Shown: positions 362 to 31,807, counted from the stretch's first letter. The stretch: 32,000 bases of DNA from Edaphobacter aggregans (GCF_003945235.1 NZ_RSDW01000001.1:3660001-3692000), one strand, 5' to 3'. Notes: generated by a model not told the origin, from the sequence alone. A program made the numbers and translations.

Positions 362-1438
362 TCACCACTGAAGGAGGACGAGTTCGGAGCAGAAGGCCGG
401 GCCCATGGCGGCGAGGATGCTGTAACAGCCAGGGGTTCCGGGGTGGTTGAGGAGGTAGTCCTCCATGACGGCGAGGACGGAGGCGGCGGATAGATTGCCA
501 ACCTCGCGGAGGCTCTTCCATGAGGGAGCGAGAGCGTTGGGCGGAAGGTTGAGGGTGTTCTCCATAGCTTCGAGAACTTTGGGGCCGCCGCTGTGGAAGA
601 TGTAGCTGCAGATGCGGTCCATGGAGAGATTGTTGTCGCTGAGGAAGGCTTCGACGTCACCGCGGAGATTCTCGTTGACGACTTTGGGGACTTCTGGGGA
701 GAGGACGATCTTGAAGCCGGTGTCGGTGATGTCCCAGCCCATGATGCGCTCGGTGTTGCGGTAGAAGGTGGAGCGAGTAGAGACGACGCGAGGCGCGGGC
801 TGCTCGATGCTGGTGGGGCGCTTGCCTAGAGGGGTGTCGGCCCCGGCCATGATGACGGCAGCGGCGCCGTCGCCGAAGAGGCCGCAGGAGATGAGGTTGG
901 CGATGGACTGGTCATCGTCCTGCCAGGTGAGGGAACAAAGCTCGACGGAGAGCAAGAGGACATATTGGTCCGGGAAGGCGCGGACGTAGTCGGCGGCACG
1001 GGCAATGCCTGCTGCTCCAGCGACGCAGCCAAGGCCGAAGATCGGCGTGCGCTTGACGTTGACGGGGAAGGGCATCCGGTTGATGAGACGTGCATCGACG
1101 GTGGGGCTGGAGATGCCGGTGACAGAGGCGAAGAAGATGGCGGAGATGTCGGCGGCGGTGAGGCCTACGCGTTCGAGGGCAGTGGTGATGGCTTGCTCGC
1201 CGAGGTCGACGGCGGCTTTGATCCAGGCGTCGTTGGTCTTGGTGAAGGTGTCGAGGGTGGGGTAGGTCTCGAGGGGGAAGACGATGTTGCGGAACTCGAC
1301 ACCGCAGTTGGCGTGGAGGCGGTTGAGGAGCCGGGGCTCCTCCATTTTGTGCTGCCAGCGATTTCGGAGGGCCTCGGTGATGACTGCCTGTGGATAGCGA
1401 TGGGGCGGATATGCCGTGCCGACAGAGGCGATGCGCAT
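362..1438 (-). CDS. type III polyketide synthase (chalcone/stilbene synthase family)
   Basis: 358-codon ORF with ATG at 1438. All three active-site contexts are present: Cys in FGLGCVAGAAG, His in IFHSGGPKVL, Asn in VGNLSAASVL. The many overlapping ORFs in other frames are shadows of this very GC-rich gene. Confidence 0.9.
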   Translation of the reverse strand: MRIASVGTAYPPHRYPQAVITEALRNRWQHKMEEPRLLNRLHANCGVEFRNIVFPLETYPTLDTFTKTNDAWIKAAVDLGEQAITTALERVGLTAADISAIFFASVTGISSPTVDARLINRMPFPVNVKRTPIFGLGCVAGAAGIARAADYVRAFPDQYVLLLSVELCSLTWQDDDQSIANLISCGLFGDGAAAVIMAGADTPLGKRPTSIEQPAPRVVSTRSTFYRNTERIMGWDITDTGFKIVLSPEVPKVVNENLRGDVEAFLSDNNLSMDRICSYIFHSGGPKVLEAMENTLNLPPNALAPSWKSLREVGNLSAASVLAVMEDYLLNHPGTPGCYSILAAMGPAFCSELVLLQW

Positions 1439-1580: not shown

Positions 1581-2459
1581 CTAATGGATGCGTGAGAGCT
1601 CCTGGGCGTAGAGGGTGTTTTGGGGGTATTCCTTTGAGAGAGCGGTGAGGATGTCGCGGGCTTCCTGGGGGCGGTTGTCGCGGAGGGCGGCGACGGCGAG
1701 CATCATGCGGGCGAAGGGGGCGAGGTAGTGGCCCTTCTCGGCGGTGAGGTGAAGGAGACGGAGACCCTCTTCGCGGCTGGTGGAGGCCCCAGAGAAGCTG
1801 AGAAGCCAGCGGAGGGGTGCCCATTTGAGGCTGAGCATGTAGTTTTCGACGCCGCTGGCAAGGTGGGCGTCGTAGAGGGTAGGGTCGGCGGCGAGGGCCT
1901 GTTTGGAGTACGCGCTGGCCTCCTTGCTGTAGTTCAGGGCGGCGAGGTCGCGCTTTTCGATCATGAGGGCGTAGTCGGAGCGCATGCCGGAGACGAGGGT
2001 TTTGACATAGAGAGCGTTGGCGTCTTTGGGGTTGCGCTGGAGAGCGGTGTCGGCGAGGCGGCTGGCTTGATCGGTGCGGTCGTCGAAGTGCTTGCGGACG
2101 ATCGGGTCGGGAGTGAGGCGGTCGCGGTTGTCGAAACGGCTCTGATCGGCGAAGAGTTGTACGTCGATGACATGGAGGCGGTTAAACTCGCCGAATAGCC
2201 AGGCGGCGGCGTCGGAGACTGGGCCCATGGGGTCAGCGGGGTTGGAGGTCATCCACTGCTCAAATTTGAGGTGAGCGTCCAGGAATTGGAGGTTGTACAT
2301 GTCGTGGTAACCGTCGTTGAGTGGGTTACCGGTGAGTGGGGACGCGGGGAATGCAGCGGTGGTCGCAAGGAGAAGAAGCAACAGGAGAATCGGAGTGTAA
2401 CGGCGGCGGGTGGATTTTGCTTTCAACTGTGAGGAGATGACATGTACCTCTACTGACAT
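1581..2459 (-). CDS. secreted or membrane-anchored helical-repeat protein, function unknown
   Basis: 292-codon ORF with ATG at 2459. A basic n-region (KAKSTRRR) is followed by the hydrophobic core ILLLLLLLATTAAF, which is a signal peptide or signal anchor. The rest is helix-rich with TPR-like spacing. No family recognised. Confidence 0.6.
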   Translation of the reverse strand: MSVEVHVISSQLKAKSTRRRYTPILLLLLLLATTAAFPASPLTGNPLNDGYHDMYNLQFLDAHLKFEQWMTSNPADPMGPVSDAAAWLFGEFNRLHVIDVQLFADQSRFDNRDRLTPDPIVRKHFDDRTDQASRLADTALQRNPKDANALYVKTLVSGMRSDYALMIEKRDLAALNYSKEASAYSKQALAADPTLYDAHLASGVENYMLSLKWAPLRWLLSFSGASTSREEGLRLLHLTAEKGHYLAPFARMMLAVAALRDNRPQEARDILTALSKEYPQNTLYAQELSRIH

Positions 2460-5791: not shown

Positions 5792-6766
5792 GCTTTAGCA
5801 AGTAGGTTTGTAGGTGGCGGTAAAAAAGAAAACGTCACCCTATGGAAAACTAAGTCGAATTCTTGTCCTCGTCATATATGGCGCTGGACGAGATCGTTCT
5901 TTGCGATACGTGCCGGATTCTTGCGGTTCGAGACCTGAACTAAACCACATAAAAAATTGCACCTGTGTTCATTTTTCAACAGACGATGGAACGGGGATCA
6001 CATCTAGGCGTCGCCGTCCTATCTGTTGCGTGATTAAGAATGAGCGGTAACTAGCAGAGAATCAATCTTTAGCTAAGGCGAGCATAACGACTAACTTACG
6101 AGTTTTTAACGGTGTTGTATTTAATAAAAATGCCTCTGTGGTTGCGGCTGAGGAGCGAACGCCGGAAATTTATCCAGCATTTAATTGCGAGGAGAACAAT
6201 ATTGGTGTGATGTGATATAAGAAACGAGTAACCTTTCCAAACGATCGCCACTGAGTTGTGTTGTGGCTGTTTTTTTACTCTGCCGGTTCTGATGACTTTT
6301 AGGAGATCTGCTCGCTAGAGCTATCTTTTCTCAGGAAGGCATGAGTATTTGTTCGATATGTCAGTGTTAACCTCCCCAAAAGTAATCCCCATCACAAAAC
6401 AAATAAGGGCATCAGGCGAGATGCTGGGCCTCTGCTTCTGTCTTGACTTGAGACGCATGTGAGACCAGCCGCCTATAGTGTCGGACTAGTTCCCTACCAC
6501 CAAAGTGGGATGTCCAACTCCATAGGAGGCATAGTTTTGCACTGCAAGTAACGCTAGGCTCCTAACTTAGATTTACCTAAACCTGGTATCTCAGGAACTG
6601 CTTAGTCGTGTCTTATCGCGGTGTAACACTCTGGCGCCTTTGCCACCTTGTGATGAGTTAGGTAACCCATAAGTTGCACTCAAACCTACTCATATAACTA
6701 CAATGGCGGCCGATTTTAGCTGTAAGTCTTATCTAAGACGCAGGGCCACGAAGTATTTCCACCGGC

Positions 6767-9700
6767 TTGTTCGGGCCGAATAATTTCAACCGAACTCAGA
6801 GGTGCGTTTTGGGAAAAGTACTAAGGACGATTGCGACGAGCATTAGCATTTCTCTCTACTTATTTGTTCTGGGATGTGGAGACCCCGCACTTTCTCAATC
6901 CGGGGCCCCGAGTATCAGCCAAATTTTCCCGCAGACTATTGCAGTGGGTACGCAAAGTCAGATTATCAAGGTGACGGGACAGCATTTTGCAAACCAGGCA
7001 GCCATTCTCTGGAATGGGCACGCACTTCCCACGACTGTTGTCGATTCCAATACGTTGTCTGGGGCAGTTCAAGGTAGTAATCTCGCCGCTCCCGCTACTG
7101 TTCAGTTGAAAGTGCAGAACTTGGATAATGGGCAACAATCGCAACCTATGCCAGTAACGGTGGCAGCGGCTGCTACGTCGTCCAGTCAACTCGTAATCAA
7201 CTCGGTCGCTGTTTCCGGAGCAATGGTGAATCAACCATATGCCAGCGCGTTCGGTGCAAGTGGAGGCACTCCTGTGTACACATGGTCGATCACGTCTGGA
7301 CAATTGCCGGCGGGCCTCTCTCTTGTGGCATCGACCGGTGTAATTTCCGGTATACCGACGGTCAGCGGGACGTTCAATTTCACTATCTCGGTTGCGGATT
7401 CAGCAAGCCCGGCACAGTCTGTCTCGACGTCGGCCTCGATCACTGTCTCGTCTTCACAACTGGCGATCCTATCGCCACAGTTTCCCTCCGGAGGTGTCGG
7501 CACGGCTTATTCGATTGCCATGAAAGCTGCTGGCGGCACACCTGCATACACATGGTCCATTACGTCCGGACAATTGCCAACGGGTCTCTCTATGGGATCA
7601 TCGAGCGGCGTGATATCCGGTACACCGACAGTTGGTGGTACGTTCAAATTCACCATCTCGGTCGCGGATTCAGCAAGTCCGGCACAGTCGATCTCGACGT
7701 CGGCCTCGATCACTGTCTCGTCTTCACAACTGACGATCTTGTCCCCACTGTTCCCCTCCGGGGGTGTCGGTACGGCTTATTCGATTGCCATGAAAGCTGC
7801 TGGCGGCACACCTACATACACATGGTCCATTACGTCCGGACAATTGCCGACAGGTCTCTCTATGGGATCATCGAGCGGCGTGATATCCGGTACACCGACA
7901 GTTGGCGGTACGTTCAATTTCACCATCTCGGTTGCGGATTCATCAAACCCGGCACAGTCAGTCTCGACGTCGGCCTCAGTTAGTGTCGGATCTTCTCAGC
8001 TGGCGATCACGTCCTCAGTGCTATCCTCTGGGATTGTCGACACGGCTTATTCGACGGCTTTACAGGCAAGTGGCGGAACACCGGCTTATACCTGGTCGAT
8101 TGCCGCAGGTAGTCTGCCTGCAGGGCTCACTCTGGCCGCGACCACCGGTGTAATTTCGGGTACACCGACGACTTCTGGAACCTCTAAATTCATCGCAAGT
8201 CTGACGGACAACAGCAATCCGGCACAAACGCAGTCCACTGCGATGACAATCACAGTAGCCGCGGCACAGCCGCCTACGGGGCCTGGAACAACCTGGTACG
8301 TTCGCCCCGATGGAGGCACACGGTATTCTTCGAATGTGACTACGGGCCAATGTGATGGTAAGGCGGATGCGCCATACTCAGGCTCCGGTGTGAACCAGCA
8401 CTGCGCGTTCAACGACGTGCGGATGCTGTATCAGGATGGGACGTATAACATCGGCGCGTCATTTCCGGCCTGGGGTTGGGTAATTGCTGGTGGCGATACG
8501 GTCCTCATTCGAGGATCTATTGGGACGGGCGTCTCCTACCGGATAGGTTGGAACGGTACGACGTACGACGGTTGGGGTATTGCAGGGGATCCGTGGAGTT
8601 CCGGGATGCCGCCTCCTCCATCGGGGACAGCATCGCAGCACACGCGTATTTTGGGTGAAAACTATGCTTCGTGTCACAGTGCATCGGCTAAGACGCAGCT
8701 CCATGGCGGACGAGGGGCTTACGCTGTCATGAGTTTGTATGGGGCTTCCTACGTGGATGTCGCTTGTCTTGATATCACGGATTTTTCGGCGTGTGGTCGG
8801 GCAACGCAAAAAGTAGGATGCGATTCGACACAAGACTTCGCACAGGTCGGGATTCAACTCCACAACACCTCAACGCATGATTCGTTCACTGATATTCATA
8901 TCCATGGTCTTGCTGGAGCAGGCGTAGCTGGATCTACTGGAGATGGCGTAGTGATGGACTACGTGGACATTCTGGGCAACGCCAGTTCCGGGTGGAACGC
9001 CGATGAGGGCGATGGGACCACCGGTGTAGGATCGCTCCTCGTGTCTCATTTCAACATCAGTTGGAACGGCTGCGCCGAGGAGTATCCGATTGTTGACTCT
9101 GTTCCGTACGGAGACTGCACGGATCAGTCCAGCGGAGGGTATGGAGATGGCTTCGGTACTGCGACCGTAGCAAGTCCTTCTCCTGGTTGGCAGGTCCACT
9201 TTGATAATGGCACTGTAAGTTACAACACGCAGGATGGATTGGATGCACTTCATATCAGCGGTCCCGGGTCGACAATGACTGACACGAGAGTGCTGGCGTA
9301 TGGAAATGAAGGACAGCAGCTAAAGGTAGGTGGAGCTACCGCAACGATACAAGATAGCGTCATTGTGGGGAATTGTGAAGCGATGACGACGCAAGCAATT
9401 CCGGGGACACCCGCGGGATTCGGGTCGGTTCTGGCGTCACCTTGCAGGGCCGCGAATACAGCGGTCGTTATCAACGTCACACCTGGCTATCAGGCTACCT
9501 TTCAAGGCAATACGGTTTTTACCCAAGGATCGATTGGTCTTGAGGTAGAGTACGCAACTGCAGACACAGGGCCAACTAACACGCTTCAATTCAACGACAA
9601 CATATTTGTTGGATTTCCGAACTCTGGGAACGGAGCGAACCCCACTCCGATTTATAGCAACACTGATCTAAAGATGCTCACGAATCCGGGTGCGAGTTGG

Positions 9701-9952
9701 TCGAATAACTCCTATTTCGGATATAGGAACAACTGGATGTGCCCGGCGGTCAATGAGAGCAATGCTCTGTGTATCGATCCTGGACTGGTAGATGAGACTT
9801 ACCATCCTTATGGCTATGGCAACATGGCACCGGCATCCAGCTCCAGTCCAGTCGTCGGAGCAGGAGTGGCTGTACCCTCCATCCCCCTGGATTATACTGG
9901 CGTAACTCGGCCGAATCCTCCGAGTATCGGAGCGTATGAGTTCCCTCAATAG
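6767..9952 (+). CDS. large multidomain lipoprotein: IPT/TIG + 4x He_PIG (cadherin-like Ig) + Cys-rich putative right-handed beta-helix domain
   Basis: 1061-codon ORF with no in-frame ATG near the 5' end. The start is TTG at 6767 or TTG at 6809 (GAGG at 6799..6802, 6 nt upstream). The signal ends in the lipobox-like LFVLGC. An IPT/TIG-like segment (PSISQIFPQ...VQLKVQN) follows, then four 90-aa repeats with GGTPxYTWSITSGQLPxGL...GVISGTPT. The C-terminal region of about 550 aa starts TTWYVRPDGG and ends IGAYEF, with periodic coils (DVACLDITDFS, FTDIHIHGLAG, VMDYVDILGNAS, LDALHISG). Confidence 0.85.
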   Translation: MFGPNNFNRTQRCVLGKVLRTIATSISISLYLFVLGCGDPALSQSGAPSISQIFPQTIAVGTQSQIIKVTGQHFANQAAILWNGHALPTTVVDSNTLSGAVQGSNLAAPATVQLKVQNLDNGQQSQPMPVTVAAAATSSSQLVINSVAVSGAMVNQPYASAFGASGGTPVYTWSITSGQLPAGLSLVASTGVISGIPTVSGTFNFTISVADSASPAQSVSTSASITVSSSQLAILSPQFPSGGVGTAYSIAMKAAGGTPAYTWSITSGQLPTGLSMGSSSGVISGTPTVGGTFKFTISVADSASPAQSISTSASITVSSSQLTILSPLFPSGGVGTAYSIAMKAAGGTPTYTWSITSGQLPTGLSMGSSSGVISGTPTVGGTFNFTISVADSSNPAQSVSTSASVSVGSSQLAITSSVLSSGIVDTAYSTALQASGGTPAYTWSIAAGSLPAGLTLAATTGVISGTPTTSGTSKFIASLTDNSNPAQTQSTAMTITVAAAQPPTGPGTTWYVRPDGGTRYSSNVTTGQCDGKADAPYSGSGVNQHCAFNDVRMLYQDGTYNIGASFPAWGWVIAGGDTVLIRGSIGTGVSYRIGWNGTTYDGWGIAGDPWSSGMPPPPSGTASQHTRILGENYASCHSASAKTQLHGGRGAYAVMSLYGASYVDVACLDITDFSACGRATQKVGCDSTQDFAQVGIQLHNTSTHDSFTDIHIHGLAGAGVAGSTGDGVVMDYVDILGNASSGWNADEGDGTTGVGSLLVSHFNISWNGCAEEYPIVDSVPYGDCTDQSSGGYGDGFGTATVASPSPGWQVHFDNGTVSYNTQDGLDALHISGPGSTMTDTRVLAYGNEGQQLKVGGATATIQDSVIVGNCEAMTTQAIPGTPAGFGSVLASPCRAANTAVVINVTPGYQATFQGNTVFTQGSIGLEVEYATADTGPTNTLQFNDNIFVGFPNSGNGANPTPIYSNTDLKMLTNPGASWSNNSYFGYRNNWMCPAVNESNALCIDPGLVDETYHPYGYGNMAPASSSSPVVGAGVAVPSIPLDYTGVTRPNPPSIGAYEFPQ
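7186..8265 (+). repeat. four in-frame tandem copies of a 270-bp (90-codon) unit encoding the He_PIG domains
   Basis: The period is fixed by GGCTTATTCGATTGCC at 7504 and 7774. Units 2 and 3 are nearly identical, for example a 53-nt exact run at 7583..7635 = 7853..7905. Units 1 and 4 are more diverged. Confidence 0.9.
8288..9823 (+). repeat. copy A of a ~1.5-kb segmental duplication (C-terminal domain of the first lipoprotein)
   Basis: It aligns with 10017..11547 at a constant offset of 1729 bp through the first half: TGGTACGTTCG at 8294 and 10023, and an exact 38-nt run at 8735..8772 = 10464..10501. Confidence 0.85.
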
Positions 9953-11717
9953 CCGCATATGCCTTAAGACGCTTTGTGTATTGGTTCTAGGATGTGCGTG
10001 TGTTCCCCTCTTCGGTACGACTTGGTACGTTCGTCCGGATGGAGGCACGCGCTACTCCACAAACGTAACGAAGGGCCAGTGCGATGGTAAGGCAGATGCG
10101 CCTTACCCCGGCTCCGGCGCGAACAAGCATTGTGCGTTCAACGACGTGCGTATGCTGTATACGGATGGGACGTATGCCGACGGTCATCACTTTCCTGCCT
10201 GGGGTTGGGTGATTGCTGGAGGCGATACGGTCATCATTCGAGGCTCTATTGGGACCGGCGCCTCCTACCGGATAGGCTGGAACGGTACTACGTACGACGG
10301 CTGGGGTATTGCGGGGGACGCGTCGAGTTCAGGGATGCTACCCCCTCCGTCCGGCACAGCTGCACAGCACACGCGCATTCTGGGTGAGAACTACGCTTCG
10401 TGTCACAGCGCGTCGGCTAAGACGCAACTCCACGGAGGGCGAGGGGCTTATGCTGTCATGAGCTTGTATGGGGCTTCCTACGTGGATGTCGCTTGTCTTG
10501 ACATTACGGATTTCTCGGCGTGTGGCAAGGCAGCACAGAAAGTTGGGTGCGATTCGACGCAGGACTATGCTCAGGTCGGGATTCAGTTACACAATACTTC
10601 AACACACGATACGCTTACAGACATTCACATCCATGGTCTTGCAGGCTCAGGCATAGTTGGAGCTACCGGAAATGGCGTAGTAATGGACTACGTCGATGTT
10701 CTAGGGAACGCCAGTTCTGGCTGGAACGCCGATGAAGGCGACGGGACTACTGGAGTGGGATCGCTTAATGTGTCCCACTACGACATCAGTTGGAACGGTT
10801 GTGCCGAGGAGTACCCCATTGTACATCCGCTCCCATTTGGAGACTGCACGGATCAGGACCATGGGGGGTATGGCGACGGCTTCGGAACGGCGACAAAGGA
10901 CAGCGATCCGCCAGGTTGGCAGGTTCATTTCGATCAGGGTGTTGTCAGTTACAACACGCAGGATGGATTAGATGCGCTTCACATCGGTGGTACAGGCTCG
11001 AGCATGACCGTTACGAACACGCGTGCCTTCAGCAGTATGGGACAACAGATCAAGGTAGGTGGCGCAGCGGCGATCATAACCGACAATCTTATAGTCGGCA
11101 ATTGTAGGGCGATGTCCAAGGCGATCCCAGGCACGCCGCCGGGATTCAACGCTCAGTTGAGTCTGTTTTGCCGGGCAGGTGACAGTGCAATCGTCGTCAA
11201 TGTGCCAGAGACTCAGCCTGCCATATTCCAGCGCAACATTATTTACTCGGCAAACCGCCTTGCTTTGGAGGTCGAGTATCTTGGGAATCCATCGCCCAAG
11301 GCCGCTATCAAATATGACGACAACATCTTTATTGGTTTTCCCAACGTGGAAGGTAGCTACCCTTCGCCAATCTACAGCAATACCGATCTGAAGATGTTCA
11401 CCAATCCGGGAGCTAGCTTTAGCAACAATATTACTTTTCGCGCTAAGAGTAACTGGAAATGCCCTGCTACCTGGCTGCACGAGACGGGTGGTAGCTGTAG
11501 CGATCCGCAACTAAAGGATGAGACCTGGCACGAGTATGGCTATGGGGATTTCTCGCGCACTAAAGCTATCGACAAGAACTCATCGCAGCCTGAACCGGGT
11601 CCTTCTCGTGGACCTTCGCATGTCTCTACAGTGATGAAGTCATTGGGAACAGCTGTCCTGGTAGCGGGTGCCTGGAGAGGATTTCTATACTTGAGGGACC
11701 GTTCAACCAAGGCCTAG
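9936..11717 (+). CDS. paralogous Cys-rich putative beta-helix lipoprotein with a C-terminal hydrophobic/basic tail
   Basis: 593-codon ORF. The ATG at 9936 has GGAG at 9929..9932 and overlaps the last 17 nt of the upstream gene. The signal ends in the lipobox-like LVLGC. From residue 28 (TTWYVRPDGG) it parallels the C-terminal domain of the upstream protein, with the Cys positions conserved. The tail ...SSQPEPGPSRGPSHVSTVMKSLGTAVLVAGAWRGFLYLRDRSTKA is unique to this copy. Confidence 0.85.
   Translation: MSSLNSRICLKTLCVLVLGCACVPLFGTTWYVRPDGGTRYSTNVTKGQCDGKADAPYPGSGANKHCAFNDVRMLYTDGTYADGHHFPAWGWVIAGGDTVIIRGSIGTGASYRIGWNGTTYDGWGIAGDASSSGMLPPPSGTAAQHTRILGENYASCHSASAKTQLHGGRGAYAVMSLYGASYVDVACLDITDFSACGKAAQKVGCDSTQDYAQVGIQLHNTSTHDTLTDIHIHGLAGSGIVGATGNGVVMDYVDVLGNASSGWNADEGDGTTGVGSLNVSHYDISWNGCAEEYPIVHPLPFGDCTDQDHGGYGDGFGTATKDSDPPGWQVHFDQGVVSYNTQDGLDALHIGGTGSSMTVTNTRAFSSMGQQIKVGGAAAIITDNLIVGNCRAMSKAIPGTPPGFNAQLSLFCRAGDSAIVVNVPETQPAIFQRNIIYSANRLALEVEYLGNPSPKAAIKYDDNIFIGFPNVEGSYPSPIYSNTDLKMFTNPGASFSNNITFRAKSNWKCPATWLHETGGSCSDPQLKDETWHEYGYGDFSRTKAIDKNSSQPEPGPSRGPSHVSTVMKSLGTAVLVAGAWRGFLYLRDRSTKA
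10017..11547 (+). repeat. copy B of the ~1.5-kb segmental duplication
   Basis: See copy A. Similarity is very high in the first ~800 bp and clearly lower afterwards, ending at the shared YGYG codons. Confidence 0.85.
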
Positions 11718-12616
11718 CTCCGTTTCGGACTTCCAATCCAATTCCAGAACAGCGACGCTGCAGTTCTAGGGTTATCCATATCGATTGGACAGATGGCTAC
11801 AGCTCGCAAGGAACTTATCAGGGCAGCCCACGGACGGTTCTGACTCTTCAGGGCGTCTGCTCGCTGCTTATAGGCGCGAGCCCAACTGATCTGACGCGCG
11901 AGTATCCCGCAGCCGGGTGCGCCATAATGTTTGTTGATGAACTGTAATTGGGCTCGTAACATTCGGTTGGGATCGGTTGACATCGAACCTGGTGAAATCC
12001 TGTAATGAGCAATGACTTTGGGCACGAACGCGACTTCGTATCGGAGGGCGATCCGTAGCCAGAGATCGCGATCTTCTGTCGCGCGCATCGTCTCGTCGAA
12101 AAGACCAACCTCGTCAACGCATTTTCTGCGAAATGTCATGGTGGGGCACGGCAGTTCAACTTTACGCATATAAATGTACGGCGCAATATTCCCTTCGGCG
12201 TATCTAGGGTTTCCCGCGAATGTTCTTCCTAACTGACCTTCCGGGTCGATGGTAGTGACGAGACCGTAGGCAAGACCAGCTTGCGGCCGCTCTGCAAAGG
12301 CTTTCAATGACTCTGAGAGGCGGCATGGGAGCCATACATCATCAGCATCGAGGAGAGCAAGGAATTCAGCTGTTGAAGCCTTAATGGCGGTGTTTCTCGC
12401 TGCCGGCAGCCCGCGGTTATTTTGCTTGATGTATTTAAATTTGGAACCGAGTCGCTCCAAGAACGGAGCGATTACTTCAGCAGTATTGTCAGTGCTGCCA
12501 TCGTCTACGAGCAAAATCTGCCAATCATCGAACGTCTGTGAAACGACACTCTCAATGGCGGCCGGTAGGTAGTGTGCAGCATTGAACGAAGGGATAATAA
12601 CGTCGACCGTAGCCAT
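11714..12616 (-). CDS. glycosyltransferase family 2 (GT-A)
   Basis: 300-codon ORF. The N-terminus VDVIIPSFNAAHYLPAAIESVVSQTF..ILLVDDGSTDNT and the later LDADDVW (DxD) are textbook GT2 signatures. Confidence 0.9.
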   Translation of the reverse strand: MATVDVIIPSFNAAHYLPAAIESVVSQTFDDWQILLVDDGSTDNTAEVIAPFLERLGSKFKYIKQNNRGLPAARNTAIKASTAEFLALLDADDVWLPCRLSESLKAFAERPQAGLAYGLVTTIDPEGQLGRTFAGNPRYAEGNIAPYIYMRKVELPCPTMTFRRKCVDEVGLFDETMRATEDRDLWLRIALRYEVAFVPKVIAHYRISPGSMSTDPNRMLRAQLQFINKHYGAPGCGILARQISWARAYKQRADALKSQNRPWAALISSLRAVAICPIDMDNPRTAASLFWNWIGSPKRS

Positions 12617-12683
12617 CTTGCGTATTTTCCCACATCGTCGACGGTTGCACTCGAATTTGTTGAGCGGTCGGCAAGCTAACTAC

Positions 12684-13655
12684 TCATGTGCGAACGCCGC
12701 GGAGTGCAAGAAATGTTCCGGTTACAAGCAGATCTTCGTCGCTGTAATCAGAGAAACATTTTTGCAGGCGGGGACGGATATCTCGAAGACCATCAAGATT
12801 CCGTTGGTCGTAATGCGTCCCCGGAATCAGGCTCTCAATATGGGGCGAAAACTCATTCTCGCCTGCGATGTGAGTGATATAAAAGCGTGAGTCATAAAAG
12901 TCGCGTGCTGCCAATTCGCGATAGGTCGGCAATCGCAGACGGTTCATGGTTGGATCAGGACGTGAGATCAGATTCCAGAGGGTATCGGAGACGGTCAGGA
13001 AATAAAGTGGATGTATTTCCCCGAAGAGGTTGTGGCAACGGAAGTCCACTTTGTGCCACATCTCACCGTCGAACCGTAAGCACCGGACCATGTTCTTCCA
13101 ACCCGTCTCCAAATTCCCAAGATGCTCCAACACTGCACGAGATATAACAATGTCGTAACTCTGCGATTCGAGAGGTGTCGCAATGCTGTCCATCGGGACA
13201 CTGTAGCGACTGAGTAAACGGTCGCCTCCGACGGTTGCCGTTCCATCGGACTGGAGTGTAACTACATCCTTAACGCGTTCCTTTTCCTCAGCGCTGAGAC
13301 CGTTGTAGATCGCCCGATAAATGTATGCGTTGTGTTTGGCATCGAAATTTGGGGCGAATCCGTCGATACAGGTCACCGTACGCGCACCCTTCGCCAGCAG
13401 GAGAAGAGCGACGCCCAGATTGTCTCCTGGCCCGACTTCAAGAACGTCTTTCCCTCTCAGGCGCTCCGTGTCGCCTCCCGCTCCATATGTCAGGTAATCG
13501 GCCACTACCCGGTGAGCATAGCCAGCAGCATCTTCTACCGACATATTAAGACCGGTCGAGCCCGAATGATGCCCACGCAGCTTGAGGCGAGTCAGAACCT
13601 GGCCTTTTGCATAATTCAACCCCGCCAATATCGGCGAGTGGTCAATGAATGACAT
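12684..13655 (-). CDS. class I SAM-dependent methyltransferase
   Basis: 323-codon ORF with ATG at 13655 and TGGAG about 9 nt upstream. Motif I is VLEVGPGDNLG. The later YDIVISRAVLEHL is typical of Methyltransf_11/23-type enzymes. There is a long C-terminal extension of unknown role. Confidence 0.8.
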   Translation of the reverse strand: MSFIDHSPILAGLNYAKGQVLTRLKLRGHHSGSTGLNMSVEDAAGYAHRVVADYLTYGAGGDTERLRGKDVLEVGPGDNLGVALLLLAKGARTVTCIDGFAPNFDAKHNAYIYRAIYNGLSAEEKERVKDVVTLQSDGTATVGGDRLLSRYSVPMDSIATPLESQSYDIVISRAVLEHLGNLETGWKNMVRCLRFDGEMWHKVDFRCHNLFGEIHPLYFLTVSDTLWNLISRPDPTMNRLRLPTYRELAARDFYDSRFYITHIAGENEFSPHIESLIPGTHYDQRNLDGLRDIRPRLQKCFSDYSDEDLLVTGTFLALRGVRT

Positions 13656-13967
13656 TGTGAAATCTCCAATCAGAGGTATGAGTCGTCAAGCGGGAATGCA
13701 GTATCCACTTGAGTTCTGTACGTTCCACTTCATGTCACGGTCGAGATTAGCGTCGAACAGAGTGCCAATTTAGCGAGGGCTTTCCGCTGTCCGCGATGAT
13801 ACACATGAACGCCAAAGACTTGAAGCCTAATGCGTGGGATCGATTCGTAAGTCACTTGTTTGCAGTTGGATGAAACATGAGGTTGCTAAAAAAGTCCAAA
13901 CAAAATGTGTTGCGACAATCGATTTTGACGCATTGACTAGAAGAGGTATGCCAGCGACATCCGTACC

Positions 13968-13973
13968 TATAAT
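13968..13973 (+). promoter_or_regulatory. candidate -10 hexamer for the membrane-protein gene
   Basis: A perfect TATAAT lies 72 nt upstream of the ATG at 14045, in the divergent intergenic region. No convincing -35 sits at 17-bp spacing (TTGACT at 13933..13938 is 29 nt away). Confidence 0.25.
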
Positions 13974-14044
13974 TTTCTCGTGCTATTCTGCTGATCAACA
14001 AGCACGAAGACGATGTCAGTTCCCGATGGGGATACGGAAGTTCC

Positions 14045-15253
14045 ATGCGCGAGGCCTGGAAACTAGATCGAATTCGACGTGCAGCCTTTATCCCGCTTAC
14101 TATCGCTGCGCTCATCTCTCTTGTTGTGGGGATTCGTCACGCCATTGAGTACCAGTGCCATGATCTGCAATGGATGGGAGCTCGGCTGGTTGGGCAGTGC
14201 ATCGATCCGTGGCAGGAGGAACTCGCACACTTCCCGCACCACTTCCCCCATTTTGTTACGCCCAACTATCTTCACCTCTTCTATTTGATTCTGCTTCCCT
14301 TTGGCCTCCTTAGCTTTGAATTTGCTGAGATTCTCTGGACTGTGACCAGTGTTGGCTTGTCTGTCGTCTGCATACTGATGCTTCGGCGACTTTTCAACCT
14401 CGATCGCTTTCAGACCATGCTGGCTCTGTGCCTGCTCTGGATGAGTTCGCCCTTTCGCGTCGTGCTGGAAGTTGGCCAGACGTCCTTCTTCGAGCTTTTC
14501 TTCTTTACAGGCGCCTATCTGGCCACTTCGACGGTGCTCGGTGGCTTGTCGTTTGGCGTCAGTTTCGCTAAGTACAGCTACTCGCCAGTAGCTGCCATGC
14601 TCTTTCTTCTCCGTGGCCGGCTGCGCTTTCTTCTTTATGCCGCTGCGGTTCCTATCGTGGGGTTATTCGGAGTCTGGCTTCTTGTCAGAACCCCGCTTCT
14701 GAAGCTCGCGATTGAGCCGTTCGCTGTATCCGCTGGCCCGACTGCGGTCAGCCCAGGTTTCGCGGACCTGATGACCCTAGCTGAACAAACTCTCAAATCC
14801 CACATTGCCTTCATTCACGCACGACAGTTTGCCTATGCTCTTGGCTTGTTCGGTAGCGCTGCTTATGCGCTTCTGCTTAGCCGCTTTCGGCTCTCGCGCG
14901 CCGCAGAATTCACGCTCATCTCTATCGCCAGTCTCTTCTTTGTAAAGCACCTCGTCTACGACTACATCTTTTTGGCCGTCCTCTTGTGTTTTGCCTTGAC
15001 CCAAAAGAGCATGAAAATCAAGGGGCCGCTCGTCGGCGGTGTTTTGGTCTTCTGGTTTATTCTCCCTATCTTCGAGAAGAGGTCGCAGTATGATCTGAAC
15101 GTCCACCTCGGGCGACTCATCATTGATTGCGGACTGCTGGCGCTACTTCTCGCCTTCACAACCGGCTACATCATTCGTGCCACAGCCCAGCCTCCGAAGG
15201 CTAACGAGATTGAACCGGAAGTATCTGCACGAGCCCTGGAGGCAACGTCCTGA
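14045..15253 (+). CDS. polytopic inner-membrane protein, GT-C/DUF2029 (GT87)-like or EpsG/Wzy-like
   Basis: 402-codon ORF with about 10-12 hydrophobic helices. The segment TPNYLHLFYLILLPFGLLSFEFAEILW resembles the first-loop/TM2 region of DUF2029-type polyprenyl-phosphate-sugar-dependent glycosyltransferases. The family assignment is tentative. Confidence 0.7.
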   Translation: MREAWKLDRIRRAAFIPLTIAALISLVVGIRHAIEYQCHDLQWMGARLVGQCIDPWQEELAHFPHHFPHFVTPNYLHLFYLILLPFGLLSFEFAEILWTVTSVGLSVVCILMLRRLFNLDRFQTMLALCLLWMSSPFRVVLEVGQTSFFELFFFTGAYLATSTVLGGLSFGVSFAKYSYSPVAAMLFLLRGRLRFLLYAAAVPIVGLFGVWLLVRTPLLKLAIEPFAVSAGPTAVSPGFADLMTLAEQTLKSHIAFIHARQFAYALGLFGSAAYALLLSRFRLSRAAEFTLISIASLFFVKHLVYDYIFLAVLLCFALTQKSMKIKGPLVGGVLVFWFILPIFEKRSQYDLNVHLGRLIIDCGLLALLLAFTTGYIIRATAQPPKANEIEPEVSARALEATS

Positions 15254-29509: not shown

Positions 29510-31807
29510 CTAGCTCAGGGAACTAAGCGCCTTTTCAGCATCTTTTGATGTCTGACTGTTGGGCGCCAGGGCGACAGCCTTCTTCAGATGATTCACAGCG
29601 TCTGCGGTGTTCGAGAGTTTTGAGTAGGTCATTCCAAGGTGATAATGTACCGCGGCGTCATTTGGCGAAACCTTCACTGCGTCTTCCAGCAAGTCCCTTG
29701 CGGAGGTGTAATTTCCTTTCTGGTAATAGACCCACGCCAACGTGTCAGCCGTGCTGGGTGAGTCAGGCATCGCTCGGCGAGCAATCTGAGCAAGGGAGAG
29801 AGCAACGTCGGTATTCTGTCCGCCTTCCACCATCAGGTAAGCGAGGTTGTTGGCCGCGACTGGCTGTTCGGGTTGGATCTTGAGGGCTGCCTTGTAATAA
29901 TCGATGGCTTTGCCCTGATCTCCGCGTGCTTCTTCAAGCGCACCCAGGATGGTATTTGCTTGTGCGTCGCTGGGGTGGGTCTTAAGCCATTGTTGCCAGG
30001 TGTCGATTGCTTTTGCGGGGTCTCCATGGCTGAGAGTTGCACGGGTGTAGACCATCAAAGCGGCACCGTTGTTTGGATTGAGCTGCATCGCCTTTTGGGC
30101 CGAGGCTGTGCCCGCGTTTATGTCACCGGTCTGAAGCTGCAGCTCAGCGAGCATGGTGTACATATCTGCGTTCTGCGGGACTTTGGCGATCTGCTGCTGA
30201 ATACGATCAATGGCCTTGGCTGGCTGCTTCTCAACCAGCATGGTGTAGACAAGCAGGCGCATGGCGCGAGCGGAGTTTGGGTCGTTGGTGAGTGCCTGCT
30301 CGAGGAGAGCCTTGGCTTCGGGAATATTCTTCTGAGTCAAACGAAGCTCTGCCAGGGACAAGGGAGCGAGAGCGTTTTTGGGGTCGAGTTTCATGGCCTG
30401 CTTGAAATCGGCCTCTGTCTTGTCGTACTGTTTCTGATTCCCTTCTGACATCCCTCTCCAAATGTAAGGATTCGCGAGCTGCGGGTTGATGGCGATGGCG
30501 GCCTCCGCAGCCTGTGCTAGAAGCCCGAAGTCGCGGGCATCGAGGGCGGCCTGAGCGAGACCCTCCTGGGCCTGGAAGTTTCTCGGGTTGAGCTTTACAG
30601 CGTCGCGAAAGCTCTGAAGGGCAACGGTCTGATCGCCCTTCATGCGAGCGGCGCGGCCCAGCCAAATCTTGACCTGAACGTTCTCGGGGTTGTTCTTCGC
30701 AGACTTCTGCAGGAGGTTGAAGGCTTCAGTTGCCTTGTTATCGTTCAAGAGGAGCATGGCGTTGAGAACTGCAACGTCGGGGTCGCCCGCGTCGGTTTTT
30801 TCAAGATCGTCAGCGATGGGCTTGGCCTTCGCCACGTCCTTTTTCATGAGCAGGATGCGGGCATAGGCCAGCTTGAGTTGCGTGCTCTTAGGATGTTTGG
30901 CGACAAGATCAGCGTAGGCCGGCTCGGCACGATCCAGCTGCTGGGTGCTGATGTAGTAGCTCTCAAGAAGGTTAGCCCCGACCGGTGAGTCGCTGAGATC
31001 GTCGGCTGTTTGCCGGAAGGTCTCTTCGGCCTTGGCCTTGTCACCTTGGCGGAGATATATATGGCCGAGGTTGGCGCGTGCGCTGACATTTTTGGGGTCG
31101 GCTGTGACGGCGGCTTGCATCGCTTGCAAGGCTCCGGACAGGTCACCCTTTCTCTCGAGCAATGCGGCGAGCGCTATGTGAGAAGTGGCGTTCTTCGGAT
31201 CGAGTGAGACGGCCTTGTTGAGTTGCTCTTCGGCAGCAGGTTCTGTGGCGGGATCAGAGGCCTGGAGAAGGCCAAGCGCGGTGTGAAAGTTGGCCCGGTT
31301 CGGGTCGATGGAGAGGGCGTGTTGAATCTGGGAGAGGGCTTCGGCGCGATCTCCCTTGGTGGCGGCTATGCTCGAGAGAAGGGCATAGGCGTCGGCGTTG
31401 TTGCTGTCGATCGCCAGTACAGCCTTTGCCTGTTCGGCTGCACGGTCAGGCTGGCGGCCGGCCAAAAGCATGTTGCCGAGGTCGATCCGAGCCTGGGTAT
31501 TGCTGGACTGCAGGTCGACTGTGCGGAGAAGCTCGGCGTAGGCGGGCAGCATATTGCCCTGTTTGACATAAACTTTGGCCAACTCATAGTGGGCCGCAGC
31601 GAAGTTATGATCGACCCTGAGAGCGTTGGAGAACTGGATGGCCGCTTCCTTCAACTTATTGTCGGCAGCGTACCGTTTGCCGCTCTCAAGATACTTCTGT
31701 TTTTGCTTGTTGGGGTCGCGCGAACAACCAACGGTAAGCCCCAAGGCGATCGAGACAGCAAGTACCGCAGAAACCCGGAACCATCGTGGAGCTAATTGCA
31801 TTTTCAT
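29510..31807 (-). CDS. TPR-repeat lipoprotein, PEP-CTERM-system PrsT-like
   Basis: 765-codon ORF. The signal MKMQLAPRWFRVSAVLAVSIALGLTVGC has a lipobox, followed by TPR units almost end to end. The N-terminal segment YLESGKRYAADNKLKEAAIQFSNALRVDHNFAAAHYELAKVY resembles PrsT (TIGR02917), but this protein is shorter than I recall for that family. TPR lipoprotein is confident; PrsT is tentative. Confidence 0.8.
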   Translation of the reverse strand: MKMQLAPRWFRVSAVLAVSIALGLTVGCSRDPNKQKQKYLESGKRYAADNKLKEAAIQFSNALRVDHNFAAAHYELAKVYVKQGNMLPAYAELLRTVDLQSSNTQARIDLGNMLLAGRQPDRAAEQAKAVLAIDSNNADAYALLSSIAATKGDRAEALSQIQHALSIDPNRANFHTALGLLQASDPATEPAAEEQLNKAVSLDPKNATSHIALAALLERKGDLSGALQAMQAAVTADPKNVSARANLGHIYLRQGDKAKAEETFRQTADDLSDSPVGANLLESYYISTQQLDRAEPAYADLVAKHPKSTQLKLAYARILLMKKDVAKAKPIADDLEKTDAGDPDVAVLNAMLLLNDNKATEAFNLLQKSAKNNPENVQVKIWLGRAARMKGDQTVALQSFRDAVKLNPRNFQAQEGLAQAALDARDFGLLAQAAEAAIAINPQLANPYIWRGMSEGNQKQYDKTEADFKQAMKLDPKNALAPLSLAELRLTQKNIPEAKALLEQALTNDPNSARAMRLLVYTMLVEKQPAKAIDRIQQQIAKVPQNADMYTMLAELQLQTGDINAGTASAQKAMQLNPNNGAALMVYTRATLSHGDPAKAIDTWQQWLKTHPSDAQANTILGALEEARGDQGKAIDYYKAALKIQPEQPVAANNLAYLMVEGGQNTDVALSLAQIARRAMPDSPSTADTLAWVYYQKGNYTSARDLLEDAVKVSPNDAAVHYHLGMTYSKLSNTADAVNHLKKAVALAPNSQTSKDAEKALSSLS

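Follow-up and report, generated by a model that had tools for sequence, protein, structure and literature searches.

What role do two exported beta-helix proteins play when they are encoded back to back within a polysaccharide biosynthesis locus? The question is raised by a 32,000-nt stretch of the Edaphobacter aggregans genome (GCF_003945235.1, NZ_RSDW01000001.1:3660001-3692000; hereafter, the window), where an initial annotation, made from the sequence alone, had pointed out two adjacent genes for cysteine-rich, putatively extracytoplasmic proteins, which we denote P1 and P2. Both open reading frames (ORFs) were found as annotated (6767..9952 and 9936..11717, with a 17-nt overlap at 9936..9952), and P2 is 100% identical to EDE15_3079 (P0001) of E. 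aggregans; the overlap is not conserved, the Tunturiibacter orthologs being separated by 162 nt. With confidence somewhat above even, we consider P1 and P2 to be cognate exopolysaccharide (EPS)-processing enzymes, most likely endo-cleaving depolymerases and possibly lyases acting on N-acetylhexosaminuronate (HexNAc-uronate) residues.

The two proteins share a domain, beginning GTTWYVRPDGGTRYS, that is 74% identical over 517 aa (P1 residues 507-1021, numbered on the 1061-aa ORF, against P2 residues 27-540), in agreement with the roughly 520 aa first estimated. Exactly 12 cysteines, rather than the 14 or so originally proposed, are common to both copies, and each is 75-100% conserved among 99 divergent homologs. 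The AlphaFold2 models are confident and beta-rich throughout, with a predicted local distance difference test score (pLDDT) of 82 and a predicted template-modelling (TM) score of 0.81 for P2, and 84.5 and 0.88, respectively, for the P1 domain. Both copies are predicted to adopt the right-handed parallel beta-helix (pectin-lyase-like) fold, as had been suspected from their periodic coils. All significant Foldseek matches of the two models in the PDB were right-handed beta-helix carbohydrate-active proteins, comprising the AlgE4 C5-epimerase, GH136 lacto-N-biosidases, rhamnogalacturonan lyase, PL6 chondroitinase B and alginate lyases, Pel9A, RbmB and phage tailspikes. By target-normalised TM score, the closest matches were Pel9A of polysaccharide lyase (PL) family 9 (0.53 for P2 and 0.56 for P1), the A-modules of AlgE4 and AlgE6 (0.50-0.55, E 9e-6; 0.55 for AlgE4 with P1) and RbmB (0.53), with AlgE4 the top match for P2, and a search of BFVD returned phage depolymerases and tailspikes as neighbours.

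The conservation pattern of the domain is centred on polar residues. Across the 99 domains (31-59% identity), D97, T146, H233, D266, D314, D343, H349, N367, K373 and N389 are at least 94% conserved, and R413 is invariant in a second alignment (A2); the conserved polar core of the P2 domain comprises D97, H233, D266, E291, Y312, D314, N340, D343, D346, H349, K373, N389 and R413. In the predicted strand pattern the conserved polar residues fall about one coil apart, as expected of residues lining the groove of an active site, and we regard them as candidate catalytic residues. As judged from sequence positions, the invariant K373 and R413, together with the conserved D266, D314, D343 and D346, would provide lyase-type ingredients, in phage copies of the domain as well. 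The similarity between the two copies (8285-9829 vs 10014-11555) is itself a mosaic: residues 27-330 are 83-93% identical, with 42-78% identity at third codon positions, and residues 331-540 are 51-63% identical, with 30-50% identity at third positions, a pattern that suggests either that gene conversion has partly homogenised the tandem copies or that the N-terminal part is more strongly constrained. When the whole domain was placed in a rough neighbour-joining (NJ) tree, P1-type copies branched apart from P2-type copies, each in old clades of their own, and on this ground we rejected a recent within-genome duplication.

Both proteins carry export signals, consistent with the extracytoplasmic location that had been proposed for them. 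For P1, the start at 6767 given by the initial annotation is best revised to the in-frame TTG at 6809, which is most likely the true start because the Shine-Dalgarno-like AGAGGTG sits 6-12 nt 5' of it and the orthologs begin MGKVLRT; the public NCBI model (P0065, 1002 aa, 'Ig domain-containing protein') begins only at V60 and so lacks both signal peptide and lipobox. The LFVLGC and LVLGC strings on which both proteins had been read as lipoproteins are present, and in P1 the reading stands. The lipobox cysteine, C37, is the sole P1 cysteine outside the beta-helix domain and is kept in 6/6 orthologs with complete N-termini (P0077, P0082, P0088, P0101, P0103 and P0115; pattern ...[LVAT]GC|G), so that by sequence P1 qualifies as a bacterial lipoprotein and predicted signal peptidase II substrate. 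The P1 stalk, annotated as an IPT/TIG domain followed by four immunoglobulin (Ig)-like domains, does contain four He_PIG domains, but Pfam returned no IPT/TIG match and a choice-of-anchor-Z repeat domain occupies that place instead. Within the stalk DNA we observed a 270-nt tandem repeat (7261-8054, 2.9 copies, 86% matches, Tandem Repeats Finder) corresponding to the middle, near-identical He_PIG units, which could allow variation in stalk length. The C-terminus of P1 ends, as had been pointed out, in IGAYEF, more fully IGAYEFPQ, and weakly resembles the choice-of-anchor Q domain (NF041518, 19 bits vs a cutoff of 25), which matches the C-termini of 14/40 divergent family members, down to E 8e-10.

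P2 appears to be anchored differently. The lipobox pattern is matched by only 29/83 P2-type proteins, and although P2 of the window is among those that match, the VLGC position reads VLGV, IVGG, LLAV and the like in orthologs (alignment A1), with the cysteine replaced by V, G, W, A or S in many of them; conservation in the subfamily resides in a ...PL[FY][GA]-TTWYV junction. P2-type proteins look like ordinary Sec substrates because the lipobox cysteine is not conserved, and P2 is not a conserved lipoprotein as had been supposed, although lipidation in the E. aggregans strain itself is possible. The hydrophobic and basic C-terminal tail that had been noted in this copy is genuine, and the subfamily keeps both the signal peptide and a predicted C-terminal membrane helix. 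The tail is conserved in 67 of the close homologs, has the full consensus Q-x-E-P...S-[YH]-x-S-[VI]-A-x-K-S-x-G-A-A-x-L-x-T-G-x-W-x-G-x-R-Y-L-R-x-R, and yielded a hidden Markov model (HMM) that matched 103 family C-termini and nothing else among the ~4,300 ORFs and proteins of the collected loci, including ~3,900 ORFs from outside the family. We read it as a family-specific type-I membrane anchor with its basic end in the cytoplasm, which would place the P2 domain at the periplasmic face of the inner membrane. A PEP-CTERM/exosortase sorting signal was considered for the same tail and rejected, given that there was no NCBIfam match, that the EP dipeptide lies ~13 residues before the helix, and that the tail HMM was restricted to the family within the collected loci. 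A search of a 5.8-billion-protein database with a 44-aa tail profile was uninformative, as it returned one 75-aa fragment and did not recover known members.

The genomic neighborhood connects the pair to polysaccharide synthesis. The window is a Wzx/Wzy locus that encodes Wzx and a Wzy_C protein, four GT2, four GT4 and one GT87-like glycosyltransferase, two methyltransferases, an acetyltransferase, a polysaccharide deacetylase, and a nucleotide-sugar dehydrogenase with a TviC-like epimerase, the latter two often located immediately upstream of the pair. With a beta-helix fold predicted and a tight association with Wzx/Wzy loci that extends well beyond E. aggregans, two of the three outcomes that would have refuted the initial annotation did not arise. 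A genome scan yielded 70 loci, nearly all from Acidobacteriaceae/Terriglobales, with one Verrucomicrobiae metagenome-assembled genome (MAG) and one Bryobacteraceae MAG; linkage was counted over the 56 loci of at least 15 kb. Homologs of the EPS genes of the window were present in 45/56 loci, three or more kinds of them in 42/56, and the tandem beta-helix pair was kept in 33/56. The most constant neighbour is the GT2 glycosyltransferase GT2a, with an ortholog of at least 45% identity within 2.5 kb in 37/56 loci. Gene order and orientation around the pair differ between genera, and this shuffling argues for selected linkage over mere shared ancestry, though the loci all come from one bacterial family. 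A mini-module of GT2, methyltransferase and GT87-like membrane glycosyltransferase (11714-15253) travels with the pair in several genera (e.g. L001 and L004). In the Verrucomicrobiae MAG (L032, OY970299.1, 7000-20000), a P1/P2-like pair at ~55-58% identity is accompanied by Wzx, GT2 and acetyltransferase homologs; either the module was transferred horizontally or the bin carries the wrong label.

When clustered at 50% identity, the family found by profile search amounts to 1132 clusters, 694 of them at E up to 1e-30. The proteins are 355-2016 aa long and come almost entirely from Acidobacteriaceae; accessory domains in the family include Ig-like, Fn3-associated or CHB_HEX_C-type stalk modules. 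In the literature, we found no earlier description of the domain family or of the acidobacterial EPS locus.

The domain is found in phages as well. Three of the 11 paralogs in non-EPS contexts lie at prophage ends (L042, 9989-14029; L057, 10028-14361; L063, 9392-15231). In L042, the order is a large protein, a 135-aa protein, the 698-aa beta-helix protein, an endolysin (phrog_938) and an integrase (phrog_1); the beta-helix copy itself has no match in PHROGs. IMG/VR contributed 12 contigs (L073-L084) with relatives at 28-64% identity, whose neighbours match baseplate hub, tail, portal, head-tail adaptor and major head families, and EPS genes are absent from all 12. Among GenBank phages, Tunturi_1 and Tunturi_2 (both with host X5P2) and Tunturi_4 (host M8UP27) carry the domain at 28-32% identity over 85-97% of its length, and the host strains X5P2 and M8UP27 themselves carry the P2 EPS locus (L009, L010). 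In Tunturi_1, gp17 (L085, 5819-9373) contains the domain at residues 394-936 and is encoded between the tail spike gene and the endolysin gene; its 'virion structural protein' label derives from a Phold-type prediction, not from proteomics (PMC11924767). Most phage copies keep D97, D266, Y312, D314, N340, D343, D346, K373 and R413; H349 is replaced by Tyr in some, and the most divergent contigs show single core substitutions, such as D266 to Pro in L084. In the rough NJ tree, several phage lineages are interleaved with host clades.

The position in tail modules would fit a virion tailspike. However, all phage and prophage copies carry Sec-type signal peptides and most keep the 12 cysteines, a combination seldom expected where the annotation is that of a virion or tail component. 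If its disulfides have to form in the periplasm, the domain would need to be exported, which makes the phage versions likelier to be secreted enzymes than tailspikes assembled in the cytoplasm. The phage and prophage homologs strengthen the case for a role on surface polysaccharide and tilt the reading toward cleavage.

We favor cleavage on three grounds: phages keep the domain in tail-to-lysis regions; the precedents WceF, VexL and RbmB, beta-helix proteins of EPS or capsular polysaccharide loci, are all depolymerases; and several Asp residues with an invariant Lys and Arg match the ingredients of a beta-elimination lyase. Such a lyase requires a HexNAc-uronate in its substrate, and the presence of one in the polymer is predicted from the adjacent dehydrogenase and TviC-like epimerase. 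In the model that we propose, P1 and P2 would be anciently duplicated, Sec-exported, disulfide-stabilised beta-helix enzymes dedicated to the EPS of the surrounding Wzx/Wzy (PrsT/XrtA-type) locus, and their most likely activity would be endo-cleavage of the polymer made by that locus. The favoured chemistry would be beta-elimination at a HexNAc-uronate residue, with the cluster of D266, D314, D343 and D346 binding a carboxylate or a cation and with K373 and R413 acting as base and stabiliser. P2, tethered at the periplasmic face of the inner membrane near the site of Wzy polymerisation, would trim or clear nascent chains, whereas the P1 lipoprotein, with its copy of the domain raised on a stalk built from five Ig-like units, would act farther out. 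Phages of the same bacteria would deploy secreted copies of the domain, presumably attacking the same polymer.

Several observations weigh against a depolymerase dedicated to the EPS. The structural matches are fold-level only: TM scores of 0.3-0.56 with ~10% identity set the fold class, not the family, and the chemistry is left open because the neighbours span C5-epimerases, glycoside hydrolases (GHs) and lyases. Sequence searches provided no link to CAZy: there were 0 PDB matches at E up to 10, either with P2 alone (phmmer) or with a 37-sequence profile, and no PL match in Pfam, so that membership in a PL1-, PL6- or PL9-type family finds no backing in sequence. No Pfam or NCBIfam model matched the core domain above threshold; Pfam Beta_helix (PF13229) scored 14.6 bits for P1 and 12.4 bits for P2 vs a gathering threshold of 25.9, which was reached by 1/40 divergent family members. 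Furthermore, H233 and E291 are lost in Tunturi gp17, 11/56 loci have no EPS neighbours and represent paralogs in unrelated contexts, and the phage copies may be secreted or lysogenic-conversion enzymes, which would fit modification as well as cleavage. A GH28-like reading of the 'NTQD', 'HG' and 'QIK' strings was dropped, as there was no GH28 Pfam match and the motif order is unlike that of GH28.

Modification rather than cleavage is the core of one alternative, in which P1 and P2 are polymer-level modifying enzymes, the leading candidate being a uronate C5-epimerase of the AlgG/AlgE type. Such an enzyme would abstract the same C5 proton as a lyase and reprotonate from the other face, with P2 acting on the nascent periplasmic chain and P1 on the mature polymer. 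The high structural rank of the AlgE4 and AlgE6 A-modules speaks for it, as do a further structural match to the bifunctional alginate epimerase/lyase 8jaz, the adjacent uronate precursor genes, and the phage copies with signal peptides beside an integrase, which resemble lysogenic-conversion genes that alter surface glycans; moreover, the conserved Y312, H349, D314 and D343 are of the residue types that AlgE4 uses. Yet the catalytic motif of mannuronan C5-epimerases is of the DPH(D/E) type, and no DPH-type motif occurs in P1 or P2. The initial annotation had drawn a comparison with the AlgG CASH domain, which as a family assignment finds no backing: neither protein has a NosD/CASH Pfam match at E up to 1, and Beta_helix stays below its threshold. 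The invariant K373 and R413 are more typical of lyases, and in the lytic-type phages Tunturi_1 and Tunturi_2 the domain is encoded in the tail-to-lysis region, where the usual function is glycan cleavage. We consider this alternative unlikely.

Less probable still is a purely non-catalytic role, with P1 and P2 as polysaccharide-binding beta-helix proteins that tether the EPS or scaffold its export and P1 as a stalked surface adhesin. An Ig-like stalk combined with choice-of-anchor domains is typical of surface adhesins, and AlgG has a structural role besides catalysis. WceF also aggregates with its glycan (PMC7949094). Nonetheless, the structural neighbours are all enzymes, and an invariant charged set (several Asp, one Lys, one Arg and one Tyr) survives in phage copies and at identities as low as 28%, which points to catalysis rather than binding alone. 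We give similarly little credence to the proposal that the pair consists of catabolic enzymes for foreign polysaccharides, or of prophage tailspike remnants that came to lie in the EPS locus by chance. Acidobacteriaceae encode many secreted carbohydrate-active enzymes, and the 11 paralog loci outside EPS clusters, three of them prophage, as well as the interleaving of phage and host copies in the NJ tree, speak for this proposal. Against it stand the linkage of the pair to one recurring set of GT2, GT4, deacetylase, Wzx and Wzy genes, maintained through the rearrangements between genera, and the separate old clades of P1-type and P2-type copies; the neighbours show no transporter, TonB-dependent receptor or sugar-catabolism theme, and there are no phage genes in the window.

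The favored interpretation, cleavage of the cognate EPS, admits a bolder extension that we put forward as tentative and still doubtful. P1 and P2 might represent a new polysaccharide-lyase/glycanase (CAZy) family for acidobacterial HexNAc-uronate EPS, forming a two-tier host system, inner-membrane-tethered and stalked lipoprotein, that sets chain length and release. Phages would have captured the domain repeatedly, using it not as a virion tailspike but as a secreted depolymerase that is Sec-exported and depends on disulfides.

Table 1. Coordinates of the P1/P2 gene pair, its domains and its most constant neighbour (positions are those of the window)
Feature	Position	Strand	Details
Maximal P1 ORF	6767..9952	+	1061 aa, TTG
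P1 gene, stalked lipoprotein form	6809..9952	+	1047 aa from probable TTG start
P1 signal peptide with lipobox VLGC at its end	6809..6877	+	Cys codon 6875-6877
Choice-of-anchor-Z repeat domain, N-terminal, Ig-like	6905..7162	+	NCBIfam NF058597, E 3.6e-18, residues 47-132 (1061-aa ORF)
Four He_PIG Ig-like stalk domains	7184..8266	+	Pfam PF05345, 4 stretches, E 6e-45
P1 beta-helix domain, putatively catalytic-type	8285..9829	+	residues 507-1021 of 1061-aa ORF
P1 C-terminal module resembling choice-of-anchor Q (...DYTGVTRPNPPSIGAYEF)	9836..9943	+	NF041518, E 0.0013, 19 bits
P1 stop/P2 start overlap, 17 nt	9936..9952	+	from sequence
P2 gene, stalkless, predicted C-terminal anchor	9936..11717	+	593 aa, ATG
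P2 signal peptide	9936..10013	+	lipobox-like VLGC, not kept in orthologs
P2 beta-helix domain	10014..11555	+	residues 27-540, 12 conserved Cys and polar core
P2 linker, Pro/Ser-rich, predicted disordered	11556..11621	+	pLDDT <50 at residues 546-573
P2 C-terminal Gly-rich hydrophobic helix and basic end	11622..11714	+	predicted helix 563-592; consensus KSxGAAxLxTGxWxGxRYLRxR
GT2 glycosyltransferase (GT2a), most constant neighbour of the pair	11714..12616	-	Pfam PF00535

Additional features of the locus are of interest in their own right. In the 1.09-kb spacer upstream of P1 (5723-6808), an element of ~60 nt at 6281-6341 is 76-87% conserved 5' of P1-type genes at eight loci from different genera, far above the flanking spacer. 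Its sequence allows an imperfect 20-pair hairpin, with one compensatory change only and no Rfam match, and a regulatory or leader function is possible. An Rfam scan of the window found no family, and a promoter and terminator scan upstream of P1 returned nothing above chance. Near the other end of the window, a tetratricopeptide repeat (TPR) protein of 765 aa (29510-31807, minus strand) passes the NCBIfam cutoff for PrsT (358 vs 312 bits), which identifies the locus as an EPS system of the XrtA/PEP-CTERM type; the window itself contains no exosortase gene. A type III polyketide synthase (362-1438, minus strand) and a small TPR protein (1581-2459, minus strand) flank the EPS locus, and this flank recurs at approximately nine related loci (e.g. 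L004, L012, L016, L021, L022, L024 and L031). In Tunturiibacter, an extra 1785-aa multi-He_PIG protein (L001, 15789-21146) that has no counterpart in the window is encoded beside the module.

The Acidobacteriaceae rank with the most abundant bacteria in soil, where their EPS influences aggregation and the retention of water. A sizeable family of 1132 clusters is now defined beyond the reach of any Pfam, NCBIfam or PDB sequence model, with candidate catalytic residues proposed, and the cultured Tunturiibacter phages offer an experimental handle, in that phage and host enzymes could be assayed side by side on one polymer. If the activity proves true, the family would constitute a new family of carbohydrate-active enzymes and could help to dissect or degrade the EPS of acidobacteria.

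Among known systems, WceF from the stewartan cluster of Pantoea stewartii is an exported right-handed beta-helix protein that acts on its own EPS, and its knock-outs produce longer chains (PMC7949094). Like WceF, and as in the loci of the WceF/AmsF type, P1 and P2 are exported beta-helix proteins encoded inside a Wzx/Wzy-type EPS cluster, and WceF resembles phage tailspikes, as the P1/P2 fold does. However, WceF is a soluble trimer with a Tat signal, encoded in a single copy, whereas P1 and P2 form a tandem pair with Sec/lipobox signals, 12 conserved cysteines and predicted membrane anchors; they show no detectable sequence similarity to WceF, WceF was not among the best 50 Foldseek matches or the PDB sequence matches, and there is no twin-arginine in the P1 or P2 N-termini. 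VexL, from the Achromobacter Vi-antigen locus, is a periplasmic, disulfide-stabilised beta-helix PL1 depolymerase of a HexNAc-uronate polymer made via TviB/TviC-type enzymes (PMC6003464). The window resembles the VexL locus in encoding a nucleotide-sugar dehydrogenase and a TviC-like epimerase, but VexL is a soluble protein of ~400 aa that uses an Arg base and belongs to an ABC-transporter-dependent system, whereas P1 and P2 have no PL1 Pfam match (E up to 1) and reside in a Wzx/Wzy locus. RbmB of Vibrio cholerae is a beta-helix lyase encoded with matrix genes, for which K227 as base and calcium have been proposed (PMC12993940, PDB 9ozl); it matches P2 at the target-normalised TM score given above with ~8% identity, has neither stalk nor membrane anchor, and shows a different residue pattern.

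The highest target-normalised TM score for both models belongs to the PL9 pectate lyase Pel9A (PDB 1ru4), although the sequences show no similarity. PL9 enzymes differ in being secreted for catabolic purposes. They use an Asp cluster for calcium and a Lys base on successive coils, and D314/D343-x-x-D346/K373, compared in sequence only, resemble this arrangement. The AlgG/AlgE C5-epimerases (PDB 2pyg) share the beta-helix fold and act on a uronate polymer after polymerisation, AlgG in the periplasm; in contrast to these, P1 and P2 have a different conserved residue set in addition to lacking the epimerase motif and family matches. Phage tailspikes and depolymerases are BFVD neighbours, and the phage homologs of the domain likewise occupy tail-to-lysis regions, but the acidobacterial phage copies differ from tailspikes in their signal peptides and cysteines, which argue for export over cytoplasmic virion assembly. 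P1 and P2 would resemble WceF, VexL and RbmB in function, but by sequence lie outside their families and outside any PL, GH or CASH family. There are precedents for beta-helix depolymerases that act on the product of their own EPS locus (WceF, VexL, RbmB and AlgL-type roles); what sets P1 and P2 apart is the 12-Cys domain family, the conserved tandem pair with its two predicted anchoring modes, and the putatively secreted phage homologs.

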